From contig OZ004611.1 of the NCBI GenBank assembly GCA_963924565.1, forward strand, positions 30,380,001-30,444,000: a stretch of 64,000 bases of DNA. The letters run 5' to 3'. Origin of the DNA: Ascidiella aspersa (Eukaryota). The notes beneath the pieces were generated by a model. That model saw nothing but the letters and a program-made list of their open reading frames with translations, had not been told where the DNA came from and searched no databases. Shown in pieces: positions 1,123 to 63,355 of this stretch; position 1 is the first letter of the stretch, and the number at the start of each line of letters is the position of its first letter. The position numbers and the translations under genes were made by a program.

Positions 1123-1290
1123 CTGCTACCACTGACGTAGTCACTGTTACTACTGACGAAGTTTTGCCTGTAGGTTTGACTTAAAGATCCCAAAGTCCAG
1201 GTTGCGGGAACGAATTAAGGAGAAATGGGATTCTGCAAAAGTTTTATGAATAGGATCTAATGGTAATGATGTCGAAACGTCGTTTAATAT

Positions 1291-1415
1291 TTGGGTACAC
1301 TACGCTTCAGTTAATTTTTGAAGATGATACAAGCTCGTATCGAAAACGTCTTAATCAAGATGCTGTCGATCTACTCGACCTTTGTGGCTTTGGCATTTAT
1401 CAAGATACATTAATA
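1291..1415 (+). mobile_element. Family A repeat (hammerhead-bearing, Penelope-like non-autonomous element), inverted-pair copy
   Basis: ttgggtacacta head followed by an opposite-orientation arm TTGAAGATGATACAAGCTCGTATCGAAAACGTCTTAATCAAGATGCTGTCGATC, shared with 51286-51440 and 57437-57551. Confidence 0.65.
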
Positions 1416-29900: not shown

Positions 29901-32900
29901 TTAGTATCATTACGTCCAGCGGATATTGTGTCGCCTACTTGTTCGTTCCAAATATTTGTGTTTTTTAACCGAATTATTAGTGGAACCCAAAAATTATTGC
30001 AGTTGTTATCATTGCACACCACATTTGTTTTGCACTTAAGCCCAATCCAAAACCTTATCTAATGCCAATTCCTTTTTAGTGGAACCCAAAGTTGTCTAAC
30101 CCAAAGTTGAACGTCGTCCTTTGTTTGAGATCCTCCAGCATTTTAAGTTAAGATCAACTTTATCAAAATTCGCTTGATATGCGCCAAAAACTAAGTATAT
30201 TAATTTAAACCTTAGACTATGCGATTCAAATTAAACTATTTGACTTGTTGGCCGTTGTTATAATTCATATTCTACGATTGCGATGTTAACCCTAAATCAA
30301 CCTTATTAAAATTACTTGGTTAAGTATTTTAGTGCACTATGCACGGATCTGTAATGTAGCTTGAACGAAATCCAAAGCTAAAAAAGTCAATAATTCGAAG
30401 TCATATTGATTAAGACGTTATGATACAAACTTGTGTACCTTACAGAGAGGTATATTTTATTATCATGACGCTTGGGTAACCTATGCACGGATCTGTAATC
30501 TAACTTGATAATGAATTTTAAAACTAAAAAAAGGTCAATAAACCGACATAATTTTGATTAAGACGTTTTAATACAAACTTGTGTACCTTATGCACGGATC
30601 TGTAACGTATGCTTGAGTATAAATTGCAAAGCTAAAATGGCCCAGTAAATGACATAATCTTGATTAAGACGTTACATGCGCATTGACTGTTAATGATACA
30701 AGGCAGTATATCGAAACGTTTTAACCAAGGGTACCGGTTTATTCGATTTTTTTATAGTTTTGCAATTGATTATTATTATTACGCCTGGGTACACTATGCA
30801 GTATATACACGCATCTGTAATGTAGTTTGAACGAATTGCAAAGCTAAAAATGTCAATAAATCTACATCATCTTGATTAAGACGTTTTAATACAAACTTGT
30901 GTACCTTACCTAGATGTATTTTTTAATTATCATTACGCCTGTGTACCCTATGCACGGATCTGTCTGATTTCGGTCCAAAACATGAGAAAATGAAATCGAA
31001 AAACATTCATTAAATAAAGCATTATTAACATTAACTAGATAAATGTACTATTTTTAGTCGCTTTGCGAGAATATTTTGCGTGGTTCTATGCGAGCATCCA
31101 GATGTGGGGCCCTGGTAATTAAATTGTTAAAAAAAAACTTGATAAAGAAAAAAAGATATAAAAATTGCATAGCTAAAAAGGTCGAACAAATCGACAACAT
31201 CTTGATTAAGACGTTTCGATCCGAATTAGTGTCACATTGACTCATAATTTATAATGATACAACTTCTCGAAACGTTTCAATCAAGATGATGTCGATTTGA
31301 TCGACCTTTTAGGCTTTGCAATTCATTATTGAGCTACACTTAAACAGGAAAATAGAAAGACGTCCCAAAATGACCTTAAATAGAAGTAAATGAGTAACCC
31401 GAAACAAGGACAACCTTTAGCGACAGAAATTAACATATTTTTTCCCGGAGAAAACGCGCCTCCCCCGCAATTTTTATCTATTTCGCTGCACTTTAGGCAT
31501 TTTTTTCGTTTTTTCCCGGTACTTATAGGTTAACCTTTATATTTTTTTTAAAAAGGTTCTTTTAGAAAAGGTTTATTTTTTGACACTCTATTTCATTCTT
31601 TTTTAAACATTTTTTTTTTTTTTTTTACTTTTTAAGTAATATTTTCATTATTTTTAAGTTTCCCCTTTTAAATGCTATTTTGCGTTTATTTTGGATGTTT
31701 TGTCAAACGTTATTCAAAGTCAAACTTTTATATATTTTTTTGTTTGTTTCCTTGAAGATTTCTCTAAAACCCTCGATTTATTTAAACCCCACTTTTTCTT
31801 GAAAACCCATTTCCGAATATGTTTTTTTTTTACTTTAAACGCTCTTCCATTTTCCGATATTTCCAAATTAACTATTTGTTACATCTTAAAATCCATAAAT
31901 TTTTTTTGGTTTTCTTTAAAATCCCTTAAAAAGTTTGCTTTCAAATTTTAACGCCATACACTTTTCGTATTTTTTTTTACCTATTTTTGCCGTTTCTATC
32001 TTGTTTCACAAATAACCGTTTCTTTTTTAATTTTCGTCAAGTTTTCATTTTTAAACTTTCAGTCCCGTTTCTATAGTTTAGGAACACCTTATAGAGCAGT
32101 TTCGTTAACCTTTGTAGTTCTGGGCGCACCTCGGCACCTTTTTTGGTTTTTAGGGTATACCGACATTTCTTTTGAATGGATTCCAGGTCTTTATTACAAC
32201 TTTTCCTTGGCAGTTTATCTATCACAAAGTCTAGAATAGGACGAAAGGCTTTCTATGGAACGAATTTTCTGGGAGAAAGTAGTTTTAAATTGACCTGACA
32301 CCTGTCTCGGTTTATTTTCCCAGGAAGCCGCTTTTAAACAAACGATTCAGACGAGCGCTAAAAGCTTTCAAAGACACGCCACACAATAACATCCGATCTT
32401 TGTGTGTACATTGTTTATGTTTGTGTAGAGCAGTGGTCTGCAAACTGTGGGCCGCGATAGGTATTCGGGCTTTGAGGTTTATGATTGTGAAGCTCAATGT
32501 TTAAAAAGTAGTTGTGGACCGCGTGAGAGTCGTACGTTCATTGTCTACATTATAAAGTGTAGCTATGAGTTTTTATCTTGGCTCATTGTTGCACAACCAA
32601 GCCACTAGGCCAGGGGTGGTAATTTACGGCCCGCGGGCCAGATCCGGCTCGCCAACGCAAATCATCCGGCCCGCGACCTATTTCACAAACTGGGCACGAG
32701 GCCATTCCTCAAATATTTTCTAGCTATTTCAACTACGAAATAGCAAATATTTTTTATGCGCTTTGCGCTAATCCTGTTCCTCCATCGAGTGTAAATTGCA
32801 AAACACCCTAGTTTTATCCCTGATTAACTGTCGTTGCGGTGACAATAACGTAAAGCATACACAGCTAACATATAGCGGCCCGCGGAACACCTTTTTTAGT

Positions 32901-34908: not shown

Positions 34909-37340
34909 GAGTCCTTCATTGTTTTTCGGTTAAGTTTTATTCCTTTTTGCTGCCCCGTTGAAATTAATTTTGAAAACCGCTTGCGTTTTGTTTTTTACTC
35001 GCTTTGGACCCAAAGCCATCAGCACTTTAAGTGAGCAATTTTTTACATTTGAATTGTAGAGAAACGTTATATCAATATGGTTGTTACTACTGAAACCATG
35101 TTTAGCGCATTACATGATTTTTCCCCCATATTAGTAGCCAATGTTGTGTGGAACTATCACACATGCCATACAGTTTTAAAATAACTAAAAAAAGCAAATC
35201 ATAAACGTTTAAAGCCAATCAAACCTTGAACATTTAAAGTAAACCAAAGCGTATAGTTCAAAATATTTTAAACCAAGTCAAGCACCAGCTGACAAAAAAT
35301 GGCGCTTATTCGTTCGTTGCAAGCCAACCTCCAAGTTGCACTCCCTACACTGCTATAAGTAAAAATCGGGGCTAAGCCTCAAGCAATTGACCGCACACGG
35401 GCAAAGCAAGCAGTACTTGGCGTCTGTAGTTAAACGCTCGTTTGCCGAGTTGTTTTGGTGCTACATGGGGCGTGGGTTAAAGTCCCACGAGGGATTTGGG
35501 GCTGTTTTCGCAAGCAAATGCCCCTTTGAGCGTTTGCTTTGATGGATGACCAGCAGTCTGGGCCATTGCGCTTTTTGCCGTATTTGGTGAATTCAGTGCA
35601 CTTTCTCAGCTAAAGGCGCCTCTTAACAAAAAAACAGCGCTCCCCAGAAAGATCTACACAGCGCAAAAAAATCTGTAAAATTTGAAGAGTTCGAAAACCT
35701 TAAAAACAGTGATTTTGGGTATCTATATTGGCATTCCCCCTAGGCTTTTGGACAAATGACGACTTGTTAGTAAAACTTGACTTGTTATTTATACTGGGAC
35801 AAAAAGTAACCCTTAAAATCTTACGAGTTTCCAAACCTTAAAAACGTGATTCTGTACATCTTCAGTGGCATTAACCCTAAATCACACAATGCATCTCAAA
35901 TACCATCTTTTTTAGTATTCAATTATGAACAGCAGTCACTTAATTAATCAACAACACTAGAATGAATTAAAAGATTGCATTTAAATGAAGTGTTAAAATT
36001 CCAGACCATTTGAACAATATAGGTTATGTTTTTTTTATTAACCATTTACAAGATAGCGCTTCACTATATTATCAAATGGAGCCAACAAAACTTGTCAATT
36101 TAACCCTTGCAAATAATCCCTTATAGGATAAGAACCACTGAACAACCTCAATGTACACATTTCAGGCGAAATGTTAATTTTAGATATCACCGCTTAATTT
36201 GTACTTTAAACCTTACAAAAAGACCTTTGATACTGAAAATGTCTGCCCAAAACTTTTAGTAAGCGCTGTACTATTTATAAAAAAGGAATTTATTTTCAAA
36301 ACAAAAAGGTTTGAGACAACTCAATAGATTTAGTTTTACAGGCGAATTTCTTCCTAATGATTATTTCATTTGTAAGAATTTAGGTTGGAATTTGTGTTAC
36401 AAGTAAAATCAAAGGAAACATACACCTAAAAAAAAATAATATTTAGCAGCTTAAATACGTTTAAAGGATTAATTTTTAGAATTTACTGCAGTAAAATGAC
36501 CTAAAACCACGTGAACGATTTAGGATTTTATCATGTGTGTTCGTCGACTTTTTTATTTCGAAGATGGTTATCAGACCTAAGCTAAGTGATTCTAAAAACG
36601 CGCTTTTTACCACAAAGAAATAATCTAGAGTAAGGTGGTCTGCTATCTATGGGAAAAAAACTAAAAAAGTCTGCAAAAAGATCGGTTAAAGTCTCCTTAT
36701 ATCCTTTAAACCAGTGCTTCCCAACTTTTGGTTCGCGACCCACTTTTAATGCAAGTTTTATTGTACAACCCACATGAGATATGACCAAATTGTTTAGCAA
36801 TAGTATGAAATGCATCTGATTGGAAATAGGATTACCAGTTACATAAAATCTGTATCTTTACTACTGACGTACGTCCTGGAATAGTTACAGTGACACAACA
36901 CATCTAATTTTGACATATTTGCGATATTGTTGGATTAATGCTACGTAATGATAATGCAATAATTTCGTGATCGAATAGAAAACTGTAACATTTAGAAACG
37001 CTTCGCGACTCACCAATGGGTCGAACTGCTTTACACCACGAATATTGCTACTTTGCTTAGAGAAACATTTTTCATTTAGCGTACTATACTCAAGGCAAAA
37101 GACGAACGTATAGTAATGCAATTTCGTTTTAATATATATCACCAAGACGCAACGAATAAATAGAGAATTGCGTAGAACTTTATTTATTGCTGTTTTTATG
37201 AGTTCGTATATTGTAGTACAGCGCTGCGGACTTTTAAAGTGTTAGATTCTTTTTATTTATTCGTGAAAAAAATATTGCTAAACCGTTCAATTTTCTTGTT
37301 TGTATAAACTGTTGCTACCAGGCATAGTAATATAAATATA

Positions 37341-37540
37341 AAAAACAGCTCGTCTGGTAATTTTCATTCTTTACGAACGTTTCGGCAACCTATACAAGCC
37401 GCCTTCGTCAGGGTGAATGACACTGAACGCTCGTACAATAAATGGAAAAACACACGAAGGAAAAAAGCAGAAAAAAAGGCGCATAGGTTGCAGAAAACGT
37501 TGGTAAAAAATTAAAATTACCAGAGGGGCTGTGTTTTGAT
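37341..37540. mobile_element. Fold-back element C1
   Basis: aaaaacagctcgtctggtaattttcattctttacgaacgtttcggcaacctat is imperfectly inverted at ataggttgcagaaaacgttggtaaaaaattaaaattaccagaggggctgt. Confidence 0.6.
37364..37420 (-). ncRNA. Minimal hammerhead ribozyme motif (fold-back element C1)
   Basis: Minus strand TCATTCacc-CTGACGA-A-GGCGGCTT(gtat)AGGTTGCC-GAAA-CGTT-cgtaaaGAATGA. Confidence 0.6.
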
Positions 37541-38065
37541 TCATATTTCTTGTTTGTTTTGATATTAAAGTATAAAAAAATTACGATTGCGGATTAATAA
37601 TTGCAGCAACTGTTTTTTTATATTGGTGAATAAGTTCCAAGACGTAAGATTAAAACATTCCACAACTTAAAAAGTTTTAGACCAAAAGCGCTCTCTAAAA
37701 TAAATATTTTGGCACCTTAATCAAAATAAAAAACTTTTTCTTTTGTTTGAGCGTCACGTTTAACAGTTCGACGCTCCTTTTTAATGTAACTTTGTGACGT
37801 CACATATAAACCTAATATCATGACGTGATCACAATTTTATTAAATACCCCTTTCCAAACAAAAATTACCTCCCCTGATGAGACTTACAAGTAGTGTGGAA
37901 CGGCTTAGCAACACGTTAGAAAAATACCCACAATTACAAATAAGCGATTTGTACATTTTTGATCTTCTGTTATACGTTATTTATATCATCTTGCCTTTAG
38001 TTTATGTTTATCGTTTGTGAGACCTTTAATAATTCTCGTTTTGTACGTGTTGCCTTTGTATACAC

Positions 38066-38569
38066 CAGTGTTTCTCAACCTTTTTTAGTGGTGACCCTAA
38101 TATTAACAGAATACTGTGGCTATTCAATTAATTATCTTCGCTGAACCTTTTTTTTTAAATTGATGCTTGAATTAAACAATGAAACCTGAACACACACATG
38201 TGTGTTTACTGACCGGAGGGCCGGAGGTCGTGAGTTCGAACCTCACTGCAGGCTAGTTGTTTTTCTAGTCTGCTCTGCTTGCATCAATGATGTACAGATT
38301 CGGTGAAGAGTCTACAATGGCTTTCGGTATTGAATTGAACAAAGAAGAAATTAAATTGAAAACAAAAGAAACGGCATTATTAAAGTCAATGCTATTAAAT
38401 ATGGATCATATCGTTGTTTTGCTTCAGCAATTTTCTTAAATTTTGAAAAAACCCTTGCTGAGAACCAATTTCAATAAATCTAACTATATAAAACTACTTA
38501 AGTCGGTGACCCAACCAAATTAAACGTCCACCAAATTTTGGGTCGCAACCAATTGGTTGAGAAACAATG
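38066..38569. mobile_element. hAT-type MITE with a nested insertion
   Basis: CAGTGTTTCTCAACC...GGTTGAGAAACAATG; TSD gtatacac/gtacaaac. Confidence 0.75.
38178..38330 (+). mobile_element. Truncated, rearranged copy of the tRNA-like element nested in a hAT MITE
   Basis: ccggaggtcgtgagttcgaacctcactgcaggctagttgtttttctag... matches the reverse complement of 46777-46884. Confidence 0.7.
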
Positions 38570-41071: not shown

Positions 41072-42556
41072 TTAAATATTAGACCCTTGAATTTTGCTCC
41101 ACGCTAAAGCTCAAAGCGTTCATTTGTACACCATAAAAATAAACATAAAGGAAGTTCACGTTTATTCATTTGTGAGTTGCGTGACGTCAAGGTCGCTTTC
41201 AGAATAACAACAAGTCAAATTTTAGTCCATTGCCGACGCAGCAAACCTAAAACTGGTGTAAGGAGCCTTACGCGAAAATCACCAACTAAAATATGCAAGT
41301 CATTTGCCTAAAACAAGCTGTTTGTCAAAATTATGTCACTCATATCAGGCCACTATAAAACATTTGAACAACTGCAATTAAAGTCAGTTACTTAATTCAC
41401 CACAATACTGCTACAAATCGGAGCCTTATAGTTAAATGCGCTTTGTTTCTCAATGTCGGCCCTGGTTTGATGCAATTTACGCTTAATAAATAACGTAATA
41501 TATCTTATTTACTTAAAGAATTTTTTCAATTATATATATATATATATTTTTGAATTAGAACAAATTACTTGCAAGGTTTATAAAAAAAATTGAAAATAGT
41601 ACAAAGCCAAAATTATAAAATACAAAAAACTGGCAATTCTTTAAGATCCAATATGATACAATCGCATTTTTGCTTTCAAAAGATTTCAACACTCGAAAAC
41701 GAGGTCATTAAAAATTGTAAAATGTACCTTTACGCTTTTTAAAAATTACCTTTAAAATGATTCATAAAAAAGTAACGTTCATTTTAATGTATCGTTTTCA
41801 CTTAATAATCGTTGTAAATTTTCAGAAACAATTAAAGTCGTTACAGACTAGTGAAAATCCGATTTACATTGTTTGCAAAAGTAAAACTGTTAATCTTTTA
41901 TAAGCATCTACATAACCATGTTAAACAGACTAAACTCCCCGGATCATTTTAGAAGGTATAAACGTAAACACCACTGATCCACGCGTAAATTGTTCGCGGT
42001 TATATATAGACAACACTCGCAAAAGATACCAGTAATCATTTAATATCCACTTTTTACACAGTGCTGAAAGATTACATTCTACCGCACCTAGCGGAAAGTA
42101 ATACCGATGATTTTCTGCCACTAAGAGGTTTAACAATAAACCGCCACAGCAAAATTTGACTAACAAAGACGCGGCTTATATTTTTTCCCGAGCAATCACT
42201 CTTCAGAGTGCACAACGATGAGCCGTGTAAAACATTTGTAAATTGTGTCCTTTTATGTGCAAGATATGTCATTTACTAATGTAAATATGCCAAAAGTGCA
42301 CCGACTATGTTACGCTTTTTCGCAATGTTATCTTCTGTGCCAACTTCCGAGCAATATTTGGCTTTAAAAAGAGGAAGTATGGCAATACACAAAATTAAAT
42401 GGTCGTTAGCCGCCTAAAAGCTTTCCTATTGTAATATGTTTTCCTGTTGCTTTTTTCCGTCCCTTTATTCATTAATAAAAAAACGAAGCTGTACGAAATG
42501 ATTTGCGAATAAATAAAGAGTTCCTTTGGAACACTATATACGGATCTGTTCATAAG

Positions 42557-42833
42557 TTTAATGGTGAAAATAACGGCCCAAATAGACGTAAGAAGCGACA
42601 TGCTTTATTATTCAAACGTTTCGGCAAATGCTCATGCCATCATCAGTGATATGAAGGCCACATCAGCAGTTACACCCGTTTATATACACTTTAGTCGCAT
42701 AAAGGAATGATAAAAAGGTGCGCAACAAGCGTCGCAAAAACGATAGATGATGGCATGAGCAATTGCCGAAACGTTTGAACAATAAAGCATGTCGCTTTTT
42801 ACGTCCATTTAAGCCCTTATTTTCACCATTAAA
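42557..42833. mobile_element. Fold-back element C2 with ~88-bp inverted arms
   Basis: 42557-42644 and 42746-42833 are near-perfect reverse complements; aaataaagagttcc occurs at both 42511 and 42831. Confidence 0.7.
42609..42651 (-). ncRNA. Minimal hammerhead ribozyme motif (fold-back element C2)
   Basis: Minus strand taTCA-CTGATGA-T-GGCA(tgagcatt)TGCC-GAAA-CGTT-TGAata. Confidence 0.6.
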
Positions 42834-46675: not shown

Positions 46676-47124
46676 AATGAAAGACACACACAAACATATG
46701 TGTTTAATAACATTTGTGATCTAGCCCCTCGGAAGTTGCTTTATGACCAACGATTACGGCTTCCGTATCAATAGTACACCGAAAAGCCATCGCAGACTCG
46801 CCGAATCTGTCGATCTTTGATGCAAGCAGAGCAAGCCAGAAAAACAACTGGCCTGCAGTGAGGTTCGAACTCACGACCTCCGGTAAAGCCGGGACCGTCG
46901 CTCTACCAACTGAGCTATGCAGGCTCAGAGAGGAGCGAGTCGAGAAACAACCATGCGCCAATACTTGCACATTTTTGTTAGTACAAGCAACTTCACACTG
47001 GGGGATCATCAGTCCGTATCAATCAATGAAAGACACACACAAACATATGTGTTTAATAACTTCTGTGATCTAGCCCCTCGGAAGTTGCTTTATGACCAAC
47101 GATTACGGCTTCCGTATCAATAGT
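46676..47124 (-). mobile_element. Non-autonomous element with 100-bp terminal direct repeats and an internal tRNA-like gene
   Basis: 46676-46775 and 47025-47124 differ at 2 positions; tgagtaaaa flanks both ends (46669-46677, 47124-47132); related fragment at 38178-38330. Confidence 0.75.
46850..46924 (-). pseudogene. tRNA-like Pol III gene with non-canonical anticodon arm (T-arm resembles elongator tRNA-Met)
   Basis: GCCTGCA/TGCAGGC acceptor stem, A box TAGCTCAGTTGG, GCTC/GAGC D stem, GTGAG-TTCGAAC-CTCAC T arm and a TTTTT terminator 5 nt downstream; the anticodon region is 2 nt too long with no canonical 7-nt loop. Confidence 0.7.
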
Positions 47125-49394
47125 GAGTAAAACTTATGGTTTTACAGTCACTTACGAAAACCATATTAATCTTCATTTGCATAAGTCCTGGTTTAAAAGT
47201 AGACTTTGCGGAGCATGGTGTTTATTAACCACAAACAACCGATACAAATTATTTTTAAAACTACGACCTTTAAACATTAAATACACAGGATTAATGTATG
47301 CTTGCTACTCGACTTTTGGCCAGGTACTTAAGACGACAATGTACTAAACTAAGCTTACTGTTGTAAGTCAGGCGAGCTTGTGTGTACAGAGATCAAAAAA
47401 CAACATGCGGCTAGGTAGCCATAAGCACAACGGCCAATAACAAAAACAATAATCAAAAACCAGATGAGATCAGCCGGATGTATTTTTCTGATCAACGACG
47501 TCATAATACTTTGTCTTTGAACCACGGGGTTTAGAATTTTGCCACCAAAAAGCAGCATATTTCCCGAAGCCATAAACACTCGACATAAATTGTTTGTAAA
47601 ACAATGATTTTTTTAAGATTATTAGCATCGAGCTTTTTATGTTGCTGTTCTACTTTCAGTCTATGTAATATGTAAGACGACAATTTACCTAACTAATTTG
47701 TGGTCTTACATACCTGACTGAAAGTAGAAAAAAATCTTGCTGTGTTTAGTCAGGTAAGCCTGAGATCAAAAAGCCGTATGCCACTCCAGACCATAGGTAC
47801 AACAGCCACCAACAAAAATAATTAATTAGACAAAAACCGACACCAGATCAGCCCGTGTAATGTTTCGGATCAACGAATATACTATTTTCTCTTTGAACCA
47901 AGGCGTTTAGAATTTTACTTATTTCATTGGTATTTACAAAAAAACAGGTTAATACCATAATACGGGGAAGACTAAGTTACCGAAGTGTCACTCATCTTCT
48001 GAAAATTGCTGCTGGTCGGGTTTTCATCTTTTTTCCAACACGTGAAATATACAATTTAAACAAAACGAAATCATGAAGCCACGGACTGCCTATAGATGTA
48101 CAGCAGTCATAATAAACAATAATAAAAAAAATAAACACATTACGAGATCCGATCGACCATGTAAGCCTATTTATTGTCAGAAGATTGTCGTTAAATCCAC
48201 AATAAAACACAAAATCCCTTTGATTAAACGACGTCTGTATATAGCAATTTCGTTCTCAAAAGTAGGTAGCATTTTGAATGTTTCGTATATCTTTTAATTG
48301 ATGCCGTCTATATATAGTGATTTGGCAGCCGGTTTAGGCAGGTGGCCAATCATCTTCGGTAAACAGCAATTAACAATTGTGTTTGACGAAGAAGGGCCAC
48401 GGTTTACCCAAAGGCCCTGAAATCGATTTTCTCTTTTCTTTGATGCTCGTAAGATTTTACGCCAACATATTAAATGTCCATTGTCGAGGTTATGTTAGCA
48501 ACACAAGGCTAAACAAGGTTCGCAACAGGGTAAAACAGGTTCACTTTTAAACTTTGCTTCAAATTATTACAGCAGCTAAATCAAAACTTGTCAGTAACCT
48601 ATACATTGTTTCCTATAGTGTCCTGATTTTTTTGGGTTGGTGCTGGTTATATTTAAAGCTCTATTTTTTAAAACCTCCATTTTTTAACCTATAGCACAGC
48701 CTTTCTTAACCTGGAGTTAATTTATGTTCAGGACAGAAAAAATGTGCAAGCTGTAGGTATTCGAAGCCTAATTTCCTTGTTCAGATTTAATTAATTCGAA
48801 GTTATAGCCTCATAGCCTATAGATTCTTTATCGTCTAGTGTCGGTAACGTTATGCTTCGCGAATCGGTACTTTTTAGTTTATTGGCAAGTCTAAAGACTC
48901 CAGAAGTTGTTAATACGAACTTTCCTTCAGAAGCCAACTTTGTAGTCGGAGTACGGTATCGTACGGAAAGGCAAGACAGGGCATGATATTTACAAAGATT
49001 TTTGTTTTAACTCAAGTTATTGATTTACATCAATGACTACAGCGGAATATGAACTAACAGTTGAGGCATTATTATTTCCACGAATATATTAAGCAAGTTT
49101 GTGACCATTTTATAAATTACATTAAAATGTTTAAAAATATCAGATCACGGGTAACATTGGACCCAATTTGTTTGTTATTCAAGTTTGGCATTAACCCATT
49201 AAAATAAATGTGCTAATTCAAAACATTGTAACTTTGTACAGTTAAAATAGTGTATATCATGATTAACTACTAAAGGTTTACAATGGGTATTTTAAGTTTA
49301 ATATGGGACAAAAAAATCGCCCAAAATTTGTTTTAAAGCAAACACTGTTAATTTAGGAAACATAATTTGCATAAGTGTTGTGTAAACTGAACTT

Positions 49395-49579
49395 TGGAGC
49401 ATAATGGTTGGAGGTTGTAGCAAGACGTAATAAGAATATCAAAGCCCATACTGAAGTATAGGTATCATTTTGAACGTTTCGAATAACTCTTTATTCATTT
49501 TCAACATAAATGTAAATAGTTATTCGAAACGTTCAAAATGATACCTACTTTTGTATGGGCATTGATATTCTTATTACGT
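49395..49579. mobile_element. Family B fold-back repeat (hammerhead-like, Penelope-like non-autonomous element)
   Basis: tggagcataatggttggaggttgtag...gaacgtttcgaataac arm followed by its reverse complement. Confidence 0.7.
49467..49510 (-). ncRNA. Hammerhead-like motif with U3/A8 core (repeat family B)
   Basis: Minus strand atg-TTGAAAA-T-GAATAA(agag)TTATTC-GAAA-CGTT-caaaat; 6-bp stem II, weak stem I. Confidence 0.45.
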
Positions 49580-50389
49580 TAAACCTAACAAAGATTTAAG
49601 ATAAATTCAAATTAGTAGATCATTAAGTACTTGGACCCATACGCAATCAATCTAAATTCTAAGCCATACTTTCATTATGAAACTTTGCTAAAAGGTCGTT
49701 TTAAGCTGCAAATAGATTGTAATTTAGATATAGTTAGTCGCCAGGGCAGGAATACTTCCAAATCGAAAGGGCTGATTACCAAGGTTAATCAAGTCCTCGA
49801 CGCAAATGCGATCGATACCCAATTACATCTCGTCAGGTCTTCAATAAAGATGGGACTATAAGATTGAATCTGCCTGTCAAATCCCCAAGCAGCCTAAATT
49901 GCTCGTATATTGCAATTCATTTGATGGCCCAAAGTAATTCGTAAGTTTCATTAAAGTTTTCGCTTATACCTAAGTGAGTTAAAATATTTCCAGTAATTAA
50001 ATTTTGTGACTGCTTCAATCGAATGCTAGCTGTTGGAAAGCCGACGTTTTAATCTTCGATCTATCGCTCATATAATTTCCCCTTGTGCATCGCTCACACG
50101 ACGTTCGCATAGCACGGCGCATCCGTTCAATTACAACGACATTAATATCGACCGGTCCTCGCACAGAATGCGGATCATCCTACGACCACTTTCACTTTCC
50201 TAACGTCTCAATTGAGGACTCCTAACGTTACTCTGGTTAGAGATAAAGGCTGGAAACAGCTATCACTTGTGGGCCTTGATTTATTTCTTTATGCGAAAGT
50301 AAAACGTTTAAATTTCATGCCAGCGCTTATTTTATAATTATCTATGTGGTTTTGTACGTTGTGTTCCGTAAAAGTTAGAAAGTAGTCAT

Positions 50390-50710
50390 AAAACGTAGTA
50401 CGAATTTCAAAGCCCATACAGAAGTTAGGTAGCATTTCAAAGGTTTCGAATAAATATTAAGATAATGGATGGCGGAGTTTGCAGTTAGACGTAGAATGAG
50501 TATCAAAGCCCATACAGGAGTAAGTAGAATTTTGAAAATTTAGAATAAATATTAACATAATGACTGTAGCTTGTAGTTAGATGTAAAATAAGGATCAAAG
50601 CCTATACACGAGCGGGTATACCATTTTAAACGTTTAAAATGCTCCCTACTTCTGTATGGGCTTTGATATTTTTACTACGTCTTACTACAACCTCCAACCA
50701 TTATGCTCCA
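50390..50710. mobile_element. Family B array: three tandem partial arms plus one inverted arm
   Basis: tcaaagcccataca repeated about every 95 bp, then ctacttctgtatgggctttgat...ccaaccattatgctcca. Further degenerate copies at 58282-58378, 61437-61575 and 62755-62980. Confidence 0.65.
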
Positions 50711-51285
50711 ATATTCATAAAACATTACTCTGGTTGCGACGACCCAAATACTAAAGCTTAAATATAACATGAAGCTTTGGCGACCCAGTTCTCGTCAGTG
50801 ATTTTTTTATTAAATGGAAAAAACATAAGACAAGCATAAATAACTTCCAATTGAGTTAATATGAGGCATGTGTTCGTATTTCTCCATAAGCCTTCTCAAA
50901 TTTTAGAGACATTTTATTATGCACCAATCTTAATAAATCTAACAATATAAATCAAAATCGCTAGTTGAAAAAGGAACAAATAGAACTACTAAACACAATT
51001 GTAAATAATTCGTTTTTGTTAAGTTAAAGTGGTCGAAAATGGTGTTTTGTTAAGGTTTGAAGATAATGCTGTGCTATAAGGGTCAAAAATAGCATTTTCA
51101 AATGGTCGAAATGGTAGTTTGTGCAAACAATAAAAAATAGTAAAAGTTTTTCGTGTTCAAATAAATGTTTTTGTCGTTTAAACAAACCTAAATTGTGATT
51201 TTATAAGGCTTGTAACTATTGTTTTGCAAAAAAGAGCCTTAAATCGTGTTTTACAAATTGGAATTTTCAAAAATTGACCTTTTAT

Positions 51286-51440
51286 TTGGGTACACTATGC
51301 ACGGATCTGTAATGTAGCTTAATAATAAAATCAAAGCCACTAACTGAACTAACTGAAGATGATACAAGTTCGTATCGAAACGTCTTAATCAAGATGCTGT
51401 CGATCTACTCGAACTTTTTGGCTTTGAAATTTATTATTGA
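51286..51440 (+). mobile_element. Family A repeat with intact hammerhead core
   Basis: ttgggtacactatgcacggatctgtaatgtagctt head followed by the inverted arm containing the hammerhead motif. Confidence 0.7.
51348..51389 (+). ncRNA. Minimal type-I hammerhead ribozyme motif (repeat family A)
   Basis: taa-CTGAAGA-T-GATAC(aagttc)GTATC-GAAA-CGTC-tta: intact core, 5-bp stem II, GUC triplet, predicted cleavage after 51384; stem I is short. Confidence 0.65.
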
Positions 51441-51864
51441 CATTTTATTGTCCAATAATAATGTTTAAAAGAATAAAGAAGCTTTGCAACGAAATGTAAA
51501 ATATTGTTTATGAAATGGTTAAAATGGTATTTCGAAATAAAAATCAAGAATTGTATTCAACAAAATGTTAAAAAATAGTATTTTGTGAAACGATTAAAAT
51601 AAGTGTTTTGCAAAAATAAAAAAATAAAAATGGTAGCAAATGGTCGTATAGATACCGGAAAAACACAAAAACGTGCGTTCTTCTTAATCCGACGCACAAT
51701 GAGCGAAATCTCGTGGGCCCATTGGTGGCAATCGCACTACGCCTGTGCATTGCAGTGCAGTCAGGACACTGCTGCGTACATACTTGGTGCTATACACAAG
51801 TGCACAGCGATTGATTTCCGTTATATGAGAGCCATGTGCACTGTGCAGTTGCTTAGGCGTGTTC

Positions 51865-52410
51865 AACGGCCTTCTATGTAGGGATTGCAAGCTTAGGTGT
51901 ACGCAATATCATAATGCAATGGTTTGTAACAATATGAGCTAGGCAAGGGTTGGTAGATCAGTATAATGTTTTTAATGATAACCAGTGTGAAAAAGATGAT
52001 TACCAGTGTGAAAAAAGTGGACAGCACTGTGCCATTGCTTATGGCCGCTTAACGGCCTTCTATTCTAGTAAAGGATGGCAAGCTTAGGTGTACGCAATAT
52101 CATAATGCAATGGTTTGTAACAATATGAGCTAGGCAAGGGTTGGTAGATCAGTATAATGTTTTAAATGATAACCAGTGTGAAAAAGATGATCACCAGTGT
52201 GAAAAAAGTGGACAGCACTGTGCCATTGCTTATGGCCGCTTAACGGCCTTCTATTCTAGTAAAGGATCGCAAGCTTCGGTGTACGCAATATGATAATGCA
52301 AAGGTTTGTTACAATATGAGCTAGGCAAGGATATAATAGAATGTTTTCAATGATAAAGAGTGTGAAAAGAACTGAATAAAAAAAAACTAAAAATAGGACA
52401 GAGCAACTGT
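51865..52410 (+). repeat. Tandem ~190-bp unit x ~2.8
   Basis: aacggccttcta at 51865, 52051 and 52242; the first two units are nearly identical. Confidence 0.9.
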
Positions 52411-54764: not shown

Positions 54765-57436
54765 ATATAGAGTAATGTTAAATTTGACGCTCTGTTTTTC
54801 GACTTGTTTCGTAGCCGTGTTAGTTATTTATTGTTTGGCTGTAAATATTCTTTTTTTCTTAAAGTTCAAAGTTTATTGGCCTGACGAAGATTGACAAATC
54901 TTTGAAAGACGAACAATTTTATAATTGATACAATGTCTGGAAGCAACAATATAATAGTAAAATTCGAACCAGTTTTCTTCCTTTCTGTGAACGTCCAGAT
55001 ACAATGTAACAAAATCGATAATAGCATATACCTGAGGACAGCCGACACAAACGTATGGAAATTCCCCTAAAGTAGGAAATGACATTACGTTTTTTATTGA
55101 TCCTACAGGAGACATGCTGTTACGTGTCACTTTTTTCCCAAAGATTTGCAAGCCAGACATTTTCTTTAAGGATTAGTTTTATGAACCCCAGAGACACTCT
55201 TAAAACTGAAAGTAAAATTAACGAGACACGTTCAAAAATATTAGGGTTATGTGCTACCTCCTACTTTAAATAATGCAGTAATTCGTGATATAAACCAAAC
55301 TATAGAAATTTTTTGCTGAAACTATATTTTTGCAATGTTTGGTTTGCATTTTTTGTTTTGAAATATGTGTTGTTACAAAATAGAAAGAGAACAACTGAAA
55401 CTAGCTGTAATTCTTATTGCCGAACCAGCTATAGACAGACCGGCTAAAAGACTGTGTTACAGTATTTAGAGACGCATTCAGCACTTAAAACAGGTCTTCT
55501 GGTTTTTAGTTTGTTACCAACTTTTGGTATTTTTGAGATTTTTAGTTTTATACTACTGTTACCTTTGTAAAACGTTCCGCGAAAGTTGAAATTTGAAACT
55601 GAGAACTCTTCTAGGTCCCTGCCTCTGCACGACCATGCTAAAATAATGTAAAGTTTAGTTGGCGATTGTGTTTGTTATTACTCTTACATTTGAAGATCGT
55701 TAGCTTTACCACTTGCAATTCAAGTCAAAAAAGTATATCTAATACAATGTATATTTGTGTATATTTCATGTAGGTCCATACTGGACTCCCCAACAAAACG
55801 TTACCTCTGGAAACCACCCCTTACTATACTATACCTCAAAAAACAATAGGCACACAAATTTTTTGCATGGACCGAATTAAAGGTTATTATTATCGGGTTA
55901 AAGCACATTGTCCAATAAATGCATAATATTCTGTTTGTTTATCTTGTGTTGTACTTGTAGAAGGTTATATATAGAGAGCTGTATTTTTAGACTTTTAATT
56001 TGACACTACTTATACCTTTGTAAAAAGTTCCCACGACAGTTGATATTTGAAACTGAGAGATCTTCAAGGTGCCTGTTCCGCCAGCAGTGTTTAATATTTT
56101 AAGTTCAGTTGGCGATTGTGTGGTGCACTTATTTGTACATTTGAAGATCATTCGTTTTACCATCTGCAAATCATGTCAAAAAATTATATATTATATAGAC
56201 GTTACCTTTGCGCATAATTAATGCGGGCCTACCCGACTAAAAATAAAACATGGTATTTTCAACGCCACGCCCTTGTATTCCTCAAATAATTACTGAGCAA
56301 AGAAATCGTTTAATGGAACGAAAGTAAAGGGTATTAGGATCATGTTAAAATAAATTGTACAAATAAAACCATAAAATAATGTTCGTTTATTTCGTGCCAT
56401 ACTTCAAGTGTAAATAGAGCTGTGGTTCTTAGCCAGGGTTTCTCACGCTCAAGGGTGCCAAGCGATCTTTTAAATTGTGCTGAATTACCAATTGCTCTTT
56501 GATAAGCTTCTTGGTACAATTTTTTGTCTACTTTTGGAATGCAACAATCCAAAAACTCTTATCTTCATTGCGCATAGCTGATGTGTGTTGTTTTTATAAG
56601 GCTTATGGTGACATAGTAAACCACTTCAAAGAACCAAAGGTGTCCCGAAGTGCCCATATTTTGTATAGGGTTCCGTAATTTAAAAGAGAAGAGAAAACAT
56701 TGATTTACAGAAATGACCGCGCAAAGGAAAAGTAGTTCTCAGACATAACAGCGGCGTAACAAGAGGAGGCTTTGCGATTTAACAGAAGGTTGTTTCCAGC
56801 GATACGAGTCCTGAGAAAAATGCATTGCATTTGTACGGATATTTTACAGCGCTTGCAACAAAACCTCGTGACACCTTTACATGGGAAACACTAAAATGTT
56901 GAAAGACACTCATAGAGTATCATTTGGTCTCCTTAAAAATACCTTGTAAAATTAGTATTCGATAAATTTAACCGGCTTCAAGAATACAAAACCCGCTGTC
57001 AGTTACAATTTTAATTCAACCCAGGCCCGTGCTGCCGTCCTCCAAATCAATAATAGGAAGAGCGAAAAAGGCTTAAAACCTTAGCCCCGGCGCCTTGCCA
57101 AATGAAGACTAATTGATTGTAATTGAATTGCGGCGAACTGGTTTGCCCTGGATTAGGACACAGGTTACGCGTACTTGAATTATTCAAGGTGGTTGGGGAT
57201 TTGGTCGATGCACTTAAAGTGAGAGATCCTGGTTGTGGATGCCGTAAGCGGTTTGCAATCAAATGGGTTTTAAAATTTTAATTACCAAGATGACCTTGCA
57301 ATCTGCATGACCTTGAATAGAACCACGCAAAATATTTCCGCAAAGCGATTAAAACTACTACATTTATGTTGGAAATACTTTTATTTACTTTTTTTGGCGG
57401 GATAATGAATTACAAAGACAAAAATGTCGAATAGGT

Positions 57437-57551
57437 CAGAAGGTGATACAAGCTCGTATCGAAACGTCTTTATCAAGATGATGTCGATCTCTACTCGGCA
57501 TTTGCAATTCATTTCCAAGCTACATTACAGATCCGTGCATAGTGTACCCAA
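57437..57551 (+). mobile_element. Family A repeat, complete sense arm with mutated core
   Basis: CAGAAGG-T-GATACAAGCTCGTATCGAAACGTC...CTACATTACAGATCCGTGCATAGTGTACCCAA. Confidence 0.7.
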
Positions 57552-60235
57552 GGTTTTTTTTAACAATTCTATTACAATGACTCCACATCTGCATGGCTGC
57601 CACGCTTAAGATTCCCGCCAAGCGAAAATAGTATATTTATCTCATTATTGGAAATGCTTAATTTACTGAATGTACTTGGGACTATTTTACATTCACATTT
57701 CTGGACCAAAATCAGCAGATTTGTGAAGTCTATTTGTATTGTGACGTCAGTTTATGACGTCATTTCAGAAATTTTCTTACCCACTCTGGTTCAAACGAAG
57801 CAAAAACAAATTTTTAGGGGTCCATGGTAAAAAAAAGGTTAAGAACCCCCCTGATTTAGAGGATCATGTTACATGCACAACGCCACGGCCACAATTAGAA
57901 AAATAACGCATTAACTATTATAAACTATTATGTGCATTAACTAAATTAAGTTATTTTTCGCGAAAGCTTAATCTGCGAAGAAAGTATACGCAGACCTCAT
58001 ATAATTAGTTGTGAATGCGCTTTGCATTTGAAGGAGGTTTAACAATTTAATTACTTCTGCACTGCGAGGCTCCCTAGGGGGTAAAATTTTCCGATTGAAT
58101 TATATCGCAGTATGGTACCGACGTCCCCAATCTATTTTGAAATCTATATTTAAGCTCTATATATCGTGGATGTCCGGCATTGATTTTTTTCCTGGTAAGA
58201 TAGGAAATGCTTTTTTGTGAAGCTTTTAATACCTAAACCTCTTCATTGCCGAGGTGAGGCAAGCATAGTAGGTAAAGTTATGGAGCATAATGGTTGGAAA
58301 TTGTACTAAGAAATTGAATAAAAAAAAAATTCAAAAGGCTTCTTATGCTTCTGTCAGGGCTTTGATATTCTTCTTACCAGCTAAAAAATTGACGAACCAA
58401 CTTGGCCAATTCTATACAATAAATACACATATCTTACCCCGCAATTTTTTTATTGCATTTGATTTTGTTATATTGTAAAGAGTGAAGTTAAACAACTTTT
58501 AAGTAGCTCAGACATTTCATTAAATGTCATGTTGTTGTGCGAAGGTTATGTTGAAGAGCCCAGATGGGTCGTTACTTCTTTGCATTGTAAAATATTAGGA
58601 GGCTTGTTTTCTTTCCACAGTATCTTCTTAGCTAACGTTTGCTGCATTTAGCACAAGCCTAATGTGTAAGGACTCGCATTTTAAAAGACGTCGAGAGATC
58701 TCTCATTATTTTTTTTTATTTCTCCTGCGGTTTTCCGATTTACGCTTCAATTTTTTATAGATGCACAAAGTCATCGGAAATATTGTTTTTTGGATTTTGA
58801 TGAGCAGGTATTGGTTGGACGTATATATTTAATACATTGCAGTAGGAGTTCTTTTAATCATTGTGCTTAAGTTGACGTTCTTTATATTACAACTGGTGAC
58901 CTATATGAACATAATAAGCTACTCTATCAAAACCAATAACACCATTTTAAATGGGTTAGGGCTGAAATTATTAGCAGAGTTAGTGTATTTAGGTAAAATG
59001 TTGTATAAGCCTTATTATGACGATTTAGGACTTAATCCGACGGATTTACGAATTATTCCTGGTCTTAATCTGGACTTTATTTTATTCTGACGTTTAAGTT
59101 GTTTACATTTCTGTCTTTTTATCTGGAGTCCAATTAACAGACGTCATTTTTGTCGTTAATGTTATGTAAGTCCGTAACGTTTACGAGATGGTTTTACGGT
59201 TGCTTGGGTTAGGGCAGCTGTGATGACAACATAAAAAGTCGCTGACGCACTGCGACCAAATGTTGAATATTTGCAGAAAAAAAATCTCTGCAAAAATGCG
59301 ACGGATTGTGTTGTTGGTTGTGTTGTCTTTGGACCACCACAAAAATCGACGGTGTTTGAAAGCATACGAACAGAAATATAAGGGTTGGAATTCGAGATGA
59401 CCGGTAATATCGGTTTGGAGCCGATACCCGATGCCAATTAGTAGGGGATATCGTCTGATGCTTGGGATCTGTATAGACATCGGAATCAGATTCCAAGTAT
59501 GGGACACCCCTAGTTGTTATATGCGTCGTAAGCTTGTAGTAGCATCTTTATTACCTGCCCAAATATTTTAAAACGCTTTTCCAAGTACTTGACAACCTGC
59601 TTAAGCCCCTCCTTTTCCGCGTTAATTTTCACAGCCTTCTCTTAACGTGATTGTTTTTTTCCCGTCGTATTGAAAAAGCACCTTATCCAAATCTAAACTT
59701 GCAATAATTTACTTTTGGACCGTTAAGCACGAAAGCTAATCCGTTACAACAACTTTAAGAGGGGCGTTAGCCTTTCGCACACACCCTCTTATAACGTCAC
59801 TCGCGCGAGCGGCAGACATGCCATGACGTCACCAGCAAGATACGTCCATTGATTTTGCGAAAACACTTAATGAAACGTACATGTGATTGACATTAGCCGC
59901 GTTTTTTCTGCCTTAAGCTTTTTAAATATACTTCTATTAAGAATCAGTAAAATATTTTAGTTTATAGAACAACTTAAGTTCCTAGCGAATATTGCGAATA
60001 TTATAAACTAATTCGTTCGTTTAAATAAGAATTTTTTTTAGTGTAACACAACACTGCTAATCCTTAACTATAATCATGAATGAAAACGATCGCGAAATTA
60101 TTTTAGGAAGAAACCTATTTTTTTGGCGAGAGTTATTTTTGATAAATTAAAACCAATGTATTTAAAAGAAAATAAATTTGTTAAAAGTTTTTTCATATGT
60201 GGTATCGGTAGTTTTTTTTAATAATAAACACCTTT

Positions 60236-60855
60236 CAGGGGTGTCCGTACTGAGTGTTTAATTCCGATGCCATGACCCGATATTAAAGACGAAAAATATC
60301 GCGATATTATCCGATAGCAAATGACGTCATTGCTAGAAATAAACAAAATTTTGTAATAATGACGTCATTTCGTATCGGATATCCACTAATCAAAAATCAA
60401 ATTGTTGAATGCAAAAAAAAGACCTTTATTTGAGTGAATTTTAGTTTGAACAAAAACTACCGTTTAAATTGGCAAGGTCAGATGGGACACTATAGCTGAA
60501 ATGCTGAAATTAATTTGGTATTGAATCACCCTAGTATCGGAAGAATCACCCTAGTATCGGAAGAATCACCCTAGTATCGGAAAATCACCCTAGTATCGGA
60601 AGAATACCGATAATACCACATGATATCAGGTATCGGCTCAGATCCGATAATTTTTGCGCTACCCTAAAAATTACGTTCCTGCTTTCTAGAGCGAAAATAG
60701 AACTCATTCAGATTGGAAACCATGGCTGAAATTAATTTAGTACGGGCCGGCAATGATACCCCACTAGTATCGTACAAATCGATACTACCACTTGGTATCG
60801 GGTATCGGCTCCGATCCAATGATATCGGGCATCCCTGTAGTCAGCGCTACCCTAA
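60236..60855. mobile_element. GTATCGG-rich MITE with an internal 20-bp tandem repeat
   Basis: CAGGGGTGTCC start, gtatcgg/ccgatac subrepeats, gaatcaccctagtatcggaa x4 (60523-60602); relatives at ~43770-44116 and 59380-59512. Confidence 0.6.
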
Positions 60856-61211: not shown

Positions 61212-63355
61212 CTATACACTATACATGCAAGCCTTGAGGCAGGTATGGCGCTAAGGTCAAGTCAGGGGCGGGGCGATCGCGAATGACTTCACCTTAGCCC
61301 AAGGACCAGGGAAGTCATCATCGTACTGTCATCGCGTGACTCGGACTTATAATGTTACTACAACGCCCGGCCGATCATTTGTTGTTGCAAGCTCGGCGTA
61401 TAGGCAAGGGCAATCATTTCAGTCCTTGCTTGTAAATATGGTTAGAGGTTGTAGTTAGACGTAGTAAGGATATCAAATCCCATGCAGAAGTAGATATACA
61501 CTATGTTGAAAATATATATAAGAAAGAGATACTCGAAACCTTCAACGTGCTACTTAGTTCTGTATAGCCTTTGATAGATTTAGGGTTTTGAATGCATTGC
61601 GGGCTTTCAGATTATAACAGGGCCTTCAAGATTCAAGAAAGGATCATGCTAAATGAATTCCGGACTATATAGAAGATGAAGTGCCTTGGAACTAAAACTT
61701 TTCCAAAAACATTTACGAATAGATTAAAGGATTTTGGAATAGATCAATAGTGCTTACTCAGGAGAGAATAATCAAGTTATAAAGAAAGGGTAATAACTTA
61801 AGGCTTCTCTGACTAAACAATCAGATTTTAAAATCAAAACGAGCCCCTATTTAAAGTTTAGCTGCTTTTGAAGTATTTGTGTCTGCAGTTAAATGGATGG
61901 CCTTTTTAAACAGAATTGTTGTGCTTAAAAAGAATTCAGTGTTTCGAGAAAGCTCACTACAAAAACTGAAACAGTTTAGTGCCCGGAACACATTTTAAAA
62001 ATAATCCAGAAACTCTGTGAGACATATTTGAATCATAATGGCTAAAGATTAGAGTGGACGTACAATGAATCACTGAGCGATTAAATTTCGTATAAACAAA
62101 TTCGAAACATTCGCAAAACTTCTGTATGGGATCTGGTATTTATTCTACGTAATGACAAACATGTATATTTCCCTTCGTTTAGCAAATGCTGAGGTTTTAT
62201 GGCTGTAAAGAGTGTCACTGCAGACTCAGAACTTGCGCCAACGCGTACACGCAAACGCTTTAGCACCGGAACAAAGTTTTCAGTGTTTGACAGCTCTGAA
62301 TAATTCATTACGTAAACCAGACGTCGGTTTCTTCGCGGGTTGTGCGTGATTATCCTCGAGTAAGATTTTGAACCCCGGAGACCCAAACCCCGGAGCAACT
62401 TAAAGTTGTTGTTTTTACGGGAGCGCGTTTTGAGTTCCAGATGTGTAGTTGTTTTAGCAGCGGAGACAGGTCAAATTATTACTTGGAACTTGTTTGTGTG
62501 ACATTAAACAACTTCGAATTTTGCCGCTGCTGACGATAATGATAATTTTAACGACTATTATAACAAACTCTAACTATACCCTTGTTTTCGTTTAAGTAAA
62601 AAAATGCCACCTATAACTATATCATTACAGATTAGCATTGCTGTCGTTTTCTTAAGGCAGATAAAAATATTAAATACCTTTAATACGAATTACTAATTTT
62701 AAACACAATGGAGCTGGTTAAATATAGTTTTTTATTTTTTAAGAAAAATGACAAGTTGTAGTTAGAGGTAGAAAGTTTGTATAGAAGCTCGTAGCATTTT
62801 GAACGTTTCAAATAAATCTTAAGATAATTGCTTGAGGTTGTAGTTAGACTTAGAATGAATATCAAAGCCCATTCGAAAGTAGGTATAATTTTGTAAACGT
62901 TTCTAATAAGCCTTAAGCTAATGGTTCAAGGTTGTATAGTTAGACCTACAATAAACACCAAAGCCCATGGAAAAGTAGAAAATTTTTGTACGTATTGTAA
63001 AAGGGGCTTGGGCTAAAAGGGGCTTGCCCAAATGAACTACGTCACTGGGGATGCTAAACTTGTTATTGCTTGTGTGGTATTGTGGGTAACATCGCAATCT
63101 AGTGTCGAAACAGCAGCATGTGCTTTGTAACAATATCACCTCATTTAACCCCTTTTGATAAATTTTGAGAAACTTGATACTACTTTATATACTTATATAA
63201 TTTTTAGTTAGCCACTGTGAACGATAATCGAAATCTAAACGAATATTATGACAAACTTCAAATTGTTTTCTGATACATAAAGAATTGTAGCAATATTTGT
63301 AAATGGCGGTATTTCCTTGTGTTTTTACACGATTTTTACTGTCTTCATTTCTACT

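Follow-up and report, generated by a model that had tools for sequence, protein, structure and literature searches.

Positions 51286-51440 of the 64,000-nt stretch of DNA analysed here (the window) very probably hold a ~155-bp insertion of a Penelope-like element (PLE), or of a non-autonomous derivative moved by the PLE enzyme, which contains pLTR and ORF-start sequence only and was made from uncleaved RNA. The hammerhead motif at 51353 is real and, judged by its letters, ordinary: it is a type I minimal hammerhead of a class already published in many animals. The copy that carries the motif is probably inactive in vivo. An earlier note on this DNA had described a retroposed repeat that carries a hammerhead core and a GUC triplet, and this part of its account is supported; both the described class of the motif and the second, inverted copy at 51286-51339 had been overlooked. 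The further suggestion that the cleaved RNA is the template for retrotransposition is not supported by the copies of the repeat (family A) in the window. The features discussed below are collected in Table 1.

Table 1. Features of the insertion at 51286-51440 and exons of the Hox gene in the same window
Feature	Position	Strand	Basis or remark
Inverted, 5'-truncated copy of the family A 3' end	51286-51339	-	nhmmer, model 75-129, E=2e-12
~33-nt tail of the inverted copy	about 51286-51320	-	35/35 identical to 57517-57551
Junction, perfect 9-nt tandem duplication (51339-47 = 51348-56)	51339-51356	+	sequence comparison
Direct copy: ribozyme + ~56 nt, ends at the proximal 3' site, tail-less	51348-51440	+	nhmmer, model 3-96, E=6e-26
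Stem I, 5' strand	51350-51352	+	3 bp only in the 51348-51440 copy
Catalytic box C3-A9, CTGAAGA (CUGAAGA)	51353-51359	+	read from the sequence and descriptor
Extra T (U) between positions 9 and 10.1	51360	+	feature among those described in PMC4209133
Stem-loop II, GATAC (51361-65) / GTATC (51372-76)	51361-51376	+	5 bp, 6-nt loop, G10.1-C11.1 closing pair (G51361-C51376)
GAAA box	51377-51380	+	sequence
CG	51381-51382	+	part of palindromic helix III, ACGU (ACGT), 51380-83
GTC (GUC) triplet	51382-51384	+	predicted cut after 51384; UH = 51383-84
Stem I, 3' strand	51385-51387	+	descriptor
Competing hairpin, 51381-86 with 51391-96	51381-51396	+	MFE structures; predicted to bury the cut site
ATG-started hydrophobic micro-frame, probable PLE ORF-start remnant	51394-51440	+	likeness to families A' and B
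Hox first exon, hexapeptide near 5918	from about 5258	+	sequence reading
Hox homeodomain exon	near 29776	+	Pfam
Hox last exon	33448-34905	+	16 kb upstream of the 51286-51440 insertion

The core of the motif is complete (CUGANGA at 51353-59, GAAA at 51377-80 and UH at 51383-84), and both the extra nucleotide that separates positions 9 and 10.1 (T51360) and the G10.1-C11.1 pair (G51361-C51376) are present. A stable helix III is absent; the palindrome at positions 15.2-16.2 (ACGT, 51380-83) could permit a dimer, and when 51377-51388 is cofolded with itself ACGU pairs with ACGU. Helix I comprises 3 bp in the 51348-51440 copy, which lies inside the published range of 2-5 bp. The reading CTGAAGA-T-GATAC/GTATC-GAAA-CG-GUC with a predicted cut after 51384 was confirmed from the letters and exceeds chance in shuffled sequence. 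The hammerhead had been called intact, which holds for the core alone. For the family as a whole, stem I would be 4-5 bp, as read from the copies at 1305, 9397, 28665, 30681 and 31249. The string cttcagttaa at 1305-1314 is, as had been stated, the reverse complement of stem I and the start of the core, and the TTAA proposed for the family stem I stands within the window, preceding the core at 1305-1314 (inverted), 9397 and 28665; TTGA, a G-U wobble, precedes it at 30681 and 31249. From these letters the family stem I is most likely TTAA/TTAA; the 51348-51440 copy carries CTAA before the core and therefore has a stem I of only 3 bp.

We searched the window with a descriptor consisting of the core, G10.1-C11.1, a stem II of at least 4 bp and a palindromic helix III. 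This descriptor, which was written after the motif had been seen, matched three sites in the window (51353+, 42646- and 37411-), compared with four in 1000 block-wise dinucleotide shuffles; with a stem I of at least 3 bp added, two sites were found in the window and none in 1000 shuffles, and allowing U3-A8 gave one extra site, 49504(-). Pairing was then scored over nine aligned copies from family A and two other families, A' and B. In the stems, 80.6% of 72 cells were paired, a level reached by 0 of 500 shuffles, and controls in which the alignment was slid gave 25-44%. Across the nine copies 7 of 8 pairs differ on both strands, against a control that ignores relatedness. The G10.1-C11.1 pair is invariant (9/9), and the other four pairs of stem II change on both sides between families; a fourth family, C, lies outside this alignment because it was misaligned. 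A covariance model of the nine copies gave 18 matches with E values up to 1, every one of them in a family that had been mapped before, with family C at only E=0.72. When the entire window was scanned with Rfam (E up to 1), five matches and no hammerhead family were obtained, as would be expected for a motif that lacks helix III.

Among the traits that Cervera and de la Pena (2014; PMC4209133) describe for PLE minimal hammerheads are an unpaired base between positions 9 and 10.1, a G10.1-C11.1 pair and a palindromic 15.2-16.2, together with a short helix I and the existence of many families in a genome; the authors also describe opposite-strand pairs and a U3-A8 variant (in Cercyon PLEs). The four hallmarks of the class are all found here, namely the extra nucleotide, G10.1-C11.1, the palindrome and the presence of families with compensatory changes, and three further intact cores in other families show the same build: 42646(-), 37411(-) and 49504(-), the last with the U3-A8 swap. 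Since all of its features match the minimal hammerheads of PMC4209133, the 51353 motif is taken as an instance of that described class. Reverse transcriptase (RT) and GIY-YIG matches were sought with Pfam in 197 of the 655 window ORFs of at least 40 aa (105 ORFs of at least 72 aa and 92 ORFs of 40-71 aa near copies); none was found, and only a homeodomain passed the curated cut-off. Such an absence is expected, because the family fragments are only 100-130 nt long. The window also contains no full element in which pLTRs flank a complete ORF. With neither an RT nor a GIY-YIG remnant recovered from the scanned ORFs, we infer PLE membership from the motif and the architecture. A literature search, with most subscription papers outside its scope, returned no paper on family A.

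The architecture is that of two family A copies in opposite orientation. The inverted, 5'-truncated copy at 51286-51339(-) adjoins the direct copy at 51348-51440(+), and the inverted arm alone carries the tail. The direct copy is identical to 1319-1400 at 76 of 81 aligned bases, and at 8 of the 10 loci of families A/A' the two orientations lie side by side. The segment folds back (arms 51321-39 and 51418-37, 18/20 columns identical, z=-2.6), which would suit a MITE, a DNA transposon in which the likeness of the inverted arms to a hammerhead is accidental. We consider such an origin extremely improbable: the arms are internal and vary by locus, the tail is at one end, and four families share the core, with compensatory changes in their stems. 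Neither fixed terminal inverted repeats nor a constant target-site duplication was found, and at 51286-51440 there is no clean target-site duplication, only AT-rich TTTTATT on both flanks; a MITE is therefore unsupported, given the variable arms and the lack of a clean duplication. The TTTTATT itself was not accepted as a target-site duplication, being AT-rich and offset by 2 nt on the right.

The question of the template was addressed with the other copies of family A. A profile built from 12 window copies gave 24 matches at E up to 1, of which two (E 0.83 and 0.35) were dropped and 22 kept; the profile was made from the same copies that it maps, and its ends are approximate. The 3' ends of the 22 matches fall at model 125-130 in 12 cases, at model 95-98 in six and elsewhere in four, which defines two end sites ~33 nt apart. 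If the ribozyme cut the transcript and the 3' product, with its 5'-OH end, were then retrotransposed as a retrozyme-like SINE, no copy could hold bases 5' of the cut. Fifteen of the 22 matches span the cut (model 39/40), and all 15 reach upstream of it, starting at model 31 or earlier (range 2-31). None of them starts within 3 nt of the cut, nor does any of the 22 window matches start at model 37-43. When checked copy by copy, the 13 bases before the cut match the 51348-51440 copy at 7-13 positions in each spanning copy, and the shortest upstream overlap, at 30676, is about 6-7 nt, so that every one holds at least 6 homologous bases upstream. The copies are not independent, as 7 of the 15 sit in a cluster at 30.3-31.3 kb that is partly duplicated locally; one of the 15 belongs to family A'.

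Some observations do favour a cleaved template. Seven of the 22 matches lie only 3' of the cut, coverage peaks at 18.2 copies at model 81-90, 3 of 21 family B matches start within 5 nt of the cut (the 3' ends of this family are less clearly bimodal than those of family A), and a role in cutting precursors is among the proposals in PMC4209133. Nevertheless, the seven downstream matches start at model 57-105 rather than at 40, and mean coverage is 15.0 copies at both model 31-40 and model 41-50, without a step at the cut. The claim that the segment after the cut recurs most often in the window was not confirmed, and family B is about as frequent (21 against 22 matches, E<0.01). That segment, said to extend ~105 nt to AGTGTACCCAA, measures ~90 nt by the profile; in the 51286-51440 insertion AGTGTACCCAA is not downstream of the cut but upstream and inverted, at 51286-51296, and the direct copy ends ~56 nt beyond the cut. 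For the Poseidon PLE of the anole (PAc), Frangieh et al. (2024; PMC11167929) report that ribozyme mutants insert normally, that unprocessed RNA is the main substrate in vitro and is what inserts, and that no RNA-seq read ends at the cut. The copied RNA contained an uncut ribozyme, because the spanning copies all carry upstream bases. Within the window the cleaved-template reading is already largely refuted, and it is very unlikely to be correct. A better explanation for the frequency of the 3' part is that reverse transcription begins at two 3' sites and that 5' truncation follows.

Under the PLE explanation, the RT-endonuclease would nick AT-rich DNA, and reverse transcription would start internally on the RNA, either ~57 or ~90 nt downstream of the ribozyme. 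The uncleaved RNA would be copied for 60-130 nt, with a stop in or just 5' of the hammerhead, and two short cDNAs, one with the ~33-nt tail and one without it, would be joined in opposite orientation. The hammerhead of the parent element would cleave weakly, only as a dimer through the ACGU palindrome and/or with the help of the PLE protein, and that of 51348-51440 would be a passenger. In a separate piece at 1288-1314 (-), the 5' start of the family (10 nt) and the final ~14 nt of the tail meet with hardly anything between them; the piece adjoins the direct copy at 1317-1426 and looks like an RT template jump.

The source RNA may have been other than that of a long PLE. Family A could be a free-standing, non-autonomous element of ~130 nt, whose RNA starts ~10 nt above the core and whose copies are near-full-length cDNAs; compared with chance truncations of a 3-kb PLE, the source RNA differs and the enzyme is the same. 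All 15 spanning copies start within the range given above, and family A is out of frame with the ATG at A9. Among eight upstream stretches, shared non-inverted sequence extends only to ~12 nt above the core (9401 versus 31253), and it is because family A shares nothing beyond this point that an independent element is possible. Non-autonomous derivatives of pLTRs are also reported (10.64898/2026.07.22.740005). However, the related families A' and C have spacers of 65-100 nt upstream of the core, so the ~10-nt boundary is not universal, and stalling of the RT at the structured ribozyme explains the clustering of starts equally well; the idea was, moreover, assessed on one 64-kb window only. We regard a free-standing element as rather unlikely.

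A second non-autonomous alternative is a non-LTR retrozyme, with tandem units of 150-450 bp that each contain a canonical type I hammerhead and are expressed as circular RNA. Partial family A units are indeed arranged head-to-tail at 30325-30963, where the tail runs into stem II; the cluster also has local duplications, and one of its units is inverted. These units start inside stem II, however, and none retains the catalytic box. At the 51286-51440 locus Tandem Repeats Finder found no array, and two or more consecutive tandem units with a complete hammerhead were not found anywhere in the window. The ribozyme is, in addition, of the minimal type, which PMC7229834, in its treatment of these motifs, sets apart from the canonical motifs of retrozymes. 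There is little probability that family A belongs to this group.

Several calculations bear on whether the 51348-51440 copy can cleave. Stem I has a predicted pairing probability of at most 0.001, and in three sequence contexts a monomer folded like a hammerhead is 5.7-8.3 kcal/mol less stable than the MFE structure, by nearest-neighbour folding that does not properly score tertiary contacts and dimers. Of the 14 family A copies that span the cut, just one has an intact core; the descriptor found no second family A copy with an intact core in the window, and no intact tandem partner. Since helix III can form only between two molecules, and the window holds no second intact family A core, we infer that the copy is inactive; the modelling suggests that it is probably so unless it is aided by another RNA or by the PLE protein. 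As helix III is only the palindrome ACGU, a dimer is the proper format for an assay, as the earlier note had it. According to PMC4209133, a single Schistosoma motif gave no cleavage and dimers cleaved weakly, and the review PMC6765202 agrees on this point. The intact core fits a young copy (76/81 identity to the 1319 copy, and a tail identical at 35/35 positions to the 57.5-kb copy), and selection is not needed to explain it: the core survived because the copy is young and its truncation falls just upstream of C3.

The sequence that follows the cut may contain the start of the PLE coding region. Families A, A' and B each have an ATG that lies 5-14 nt past the cut and starts a hydrophobic peptide, similar in all three, which begins 10 nt after the cut in family A. 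Constraint at the protein level is seen between A (the 57478 copy), A' and B, and not for the 51394-51440 frame itself. A' and A (57478 copy) share 10 of 15 residues (null p=0.003), and A' and B share 7 of 12 (p=0.0005) or, over a longer stretch, 9 of 21 (p=0.012); these p values are optimistic, because the stretches were picked by eye. In both comparisons the other reading frames score lower than that of the peptide. Differences between families are biased towards silent changes, with an excess at third positions that on its own gives p=0.09 and 0.05. T-rich DNA in any case yields hydrophobic peptides, and of the 1873 stretches of 24 codons that begin with ATG in the window, 447 have no stop. 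The ATG at A9 behaves differently in each family: in family A it meets a stop after nine codons and is out of frame with the peptide (the frame is shifted), in A' the same frame contains stops, and in family B it is open into the start of the peptide. From the sequence, the hydrophobic peptide of A, A' and B probably fits the start of a PLE ORF, a position comparable to that in the anole PLE. A search for PLE proteins that begin with the shared peptide matched 0 of 44 candidates at E up to 10. The parent PLE protein was also missed when 1.84 billion proteins were searched by profile, which gave two weak matches (98 and 116 aa, E 4e-4 and 7e-4), each covering only 17-18 hydrophobic positions, in several stretches.

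A tentative and, in our estimate, doubtful extension is that the ~26 codons after the cut are a conserved PLE N-terminus and that the ribozyme is a switch of translation or decay instead of a maker of templates, the ~130-nt remnants being cDNAs of uncleaved RNA. The N-terminus would be hydrophobic and like a signal peptide, with its start codon at A9 or 5-14 nt after the cut. The capped leader would be severed from the ORF start once a protein or a second RNA folds the ribozyme, and synthesis of the ~130-nt remnants would have begun from the first site of RT initiation on the uncleaved RNA. A literature search on PLEs and signal peptides, covering titles and the starts of abstracts, returned no paper on the topic.

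The insertion lies in an AT-rich setting (GC 30-47% in 2-kb bins) that contains a Hox gene at 5258-34905 (+), with three coding exons over ~30 kb. By its residues we take this gene to be Hox2/proboscipedia-like; the databases gave no close relative, with matches only to generic Hox-like clusters. At least four minimal-hammerhead families occur in and around the gene, and copies of family A are found in its intron 1 (7.5, 9.4 and 28.4-28.8 kb) and intron 2 (30.3-31.3 kb). At 42524-42833, two family A' copies lie head to head. The minimal hammerhead at 42646(-) is intact and has a GUU triplet; a TATA-like box is placed ~40 nt above its core, in a spacer of ~100 nt, the cut is followed by an open peptide of 26 codons, and the tail resembles that of family A. 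By its sequence, this hammerhead appears as good a candidate for cleavage as the 51353 motif. Family B, a second PLE-like family with 21 profile matches (49385-49583, 12481-12592, 19997-20244, 23165-23321, 50367-50717, 61438-61577 and 62756-62993), has inverted pairs and an AC-rich tail of ~30 nt at one end. Its best copy, 49504(-), combines the U3-A8 core variant with a 6-bp stem II and a GUU triplet, and weak Rfam miRNA matches at 49459-49548 are merely the palindrome of this family. Family C (37326-37550) is an inverted pair with an intact core at 37411(-), a long stem II and a broken stem I. A pyrimidine tract that ends in TTCAG lies ~10 nt above its core, and TTTTCAG is similarly placed at the family A copy near 9397; such a tract may be a splice acceptor or an initiator-like motif. 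In D. virilis Penelope, an intron ends at helix I, as PMC4209133 describes.

Other repeats are present in the same window. Repeat X (57549-57849, 30958-31141, 57268-57367 and 14358-14564) borders on family A at two loci (57.5 and 31.1 kb), with the same T-run at the junction, and represents either a composite element or a preferred insertion site. The repeat that continues from X has an end that we assume to resemble non-autonomous hAT-type elements. X was rejected as a continuation of the ORF beside two family A copies, since the frames break and X runs into a different repeat. A 191-bp tandem repeat (2.4 copies, 96% match, 51838-52368) lies 400 bp downstream of the insertion, and a 20-bp minisatellite is found at 60523-60605; the descriptor detected no hammerhead core in either. 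At 46850-46924 (-), an Rfam tRNA match of 54 bits overlaps a repeat shared with 38221-38328, and may be a tRNA gene or a tRNA-derived SINE.

The 51353 motif matters little in itself, as thousands of such motifs per genome have been published, with about 2,000 copies in Schistosoma and 9,000 in Xenopus among the counts in PMC4209133. The family A copies provide a small independent check on what PLE hammerheads do: copies that cross the cut, together with two fixed 3' sites, agree with the internal initiation on uncleaved RNA described in vitro in PMC11167929, and they argue against the idea of a cleaved template. If the shared peptide is truly a membrane-targeting N-terminus under the control of the ribozyme, this would be a new piece of PLE biology.

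Four known systems can be compared with the insertion. The first is the PLE minimal hammerhead as described in PMC4209133, with which family A shares the core boxes, the extra base, G10.1-C11.1, a palindrome without loop III and a short helix I. Further likenesses are several families per genome, mostly single truncated copies, the U3-A8 variant (family B here) and opposite-strand pairs 100-700 bp apart. Helix II is 5 bp here, unlike the 7-8 bp of Schistosoma, and helix I is 3 bp in the 51348-51440 copy, compared with 4-5 bp in Schistosoma and 2 bp in D. virilis; unlike the published PLE hammerheads of that study, no linked ORF was seen in the window. The second comprises non-LTR retrozymes (PMC7229834; 10.64898/2026.07.22.740005), which are likewise short non-coding hammerhead repeats and are reported to be related to PLE pLTRs; family A differs in having no head-to-tail array with complete ribozymes, a minimal rather than a canonical ribozyme and mostly inverted pairs. 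The third is the complex PLE insertion, for which the legend of Fig. 2 in Craig et al. (2021; PMC8557442) describes strong 5' truncation, a truncated and inverted copy on the 5' side and, at one end, a tail of 30-40 bp. The 51286-51440 insertion and its relatives show the same heavy 5' truncation, partial tandems, an inverted 5'-side copy and a one-end tail, except that both copies in 51286-51440 are <100 nt, without an ORF body.

The fourth system is PAc of Anolis carolinensis, which we compared by its published description, placing its start codon at A9 from the text of PMC11167929. There, the start codon is at the base of stem II, the cut follows 26 nt and the RT start 111-118 nt after it, the tail lies between two internal RT start sites, and the ribozyme needs protein to cleave. 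Families A, A' and B have 26 nt, and family C 30 nt, between A9 and the cut, and the distance from A9 to the distal 3' end is ~116 nt; the 26-nt distance follows in part from a 5-bp stem and a 6-nt loop. Unlike PAc, the family A ATG stops after nine codons and the peptide starts 10 nt past the cut, the frame of family B being open. Like PAc, family A has an ATG at the start of stem II, 26 nt from there to the cut, a 3' end at ~116 nt and an optional tail of 30-40 nt between two ends, and in both it is the uncleaved RNA that is copied.
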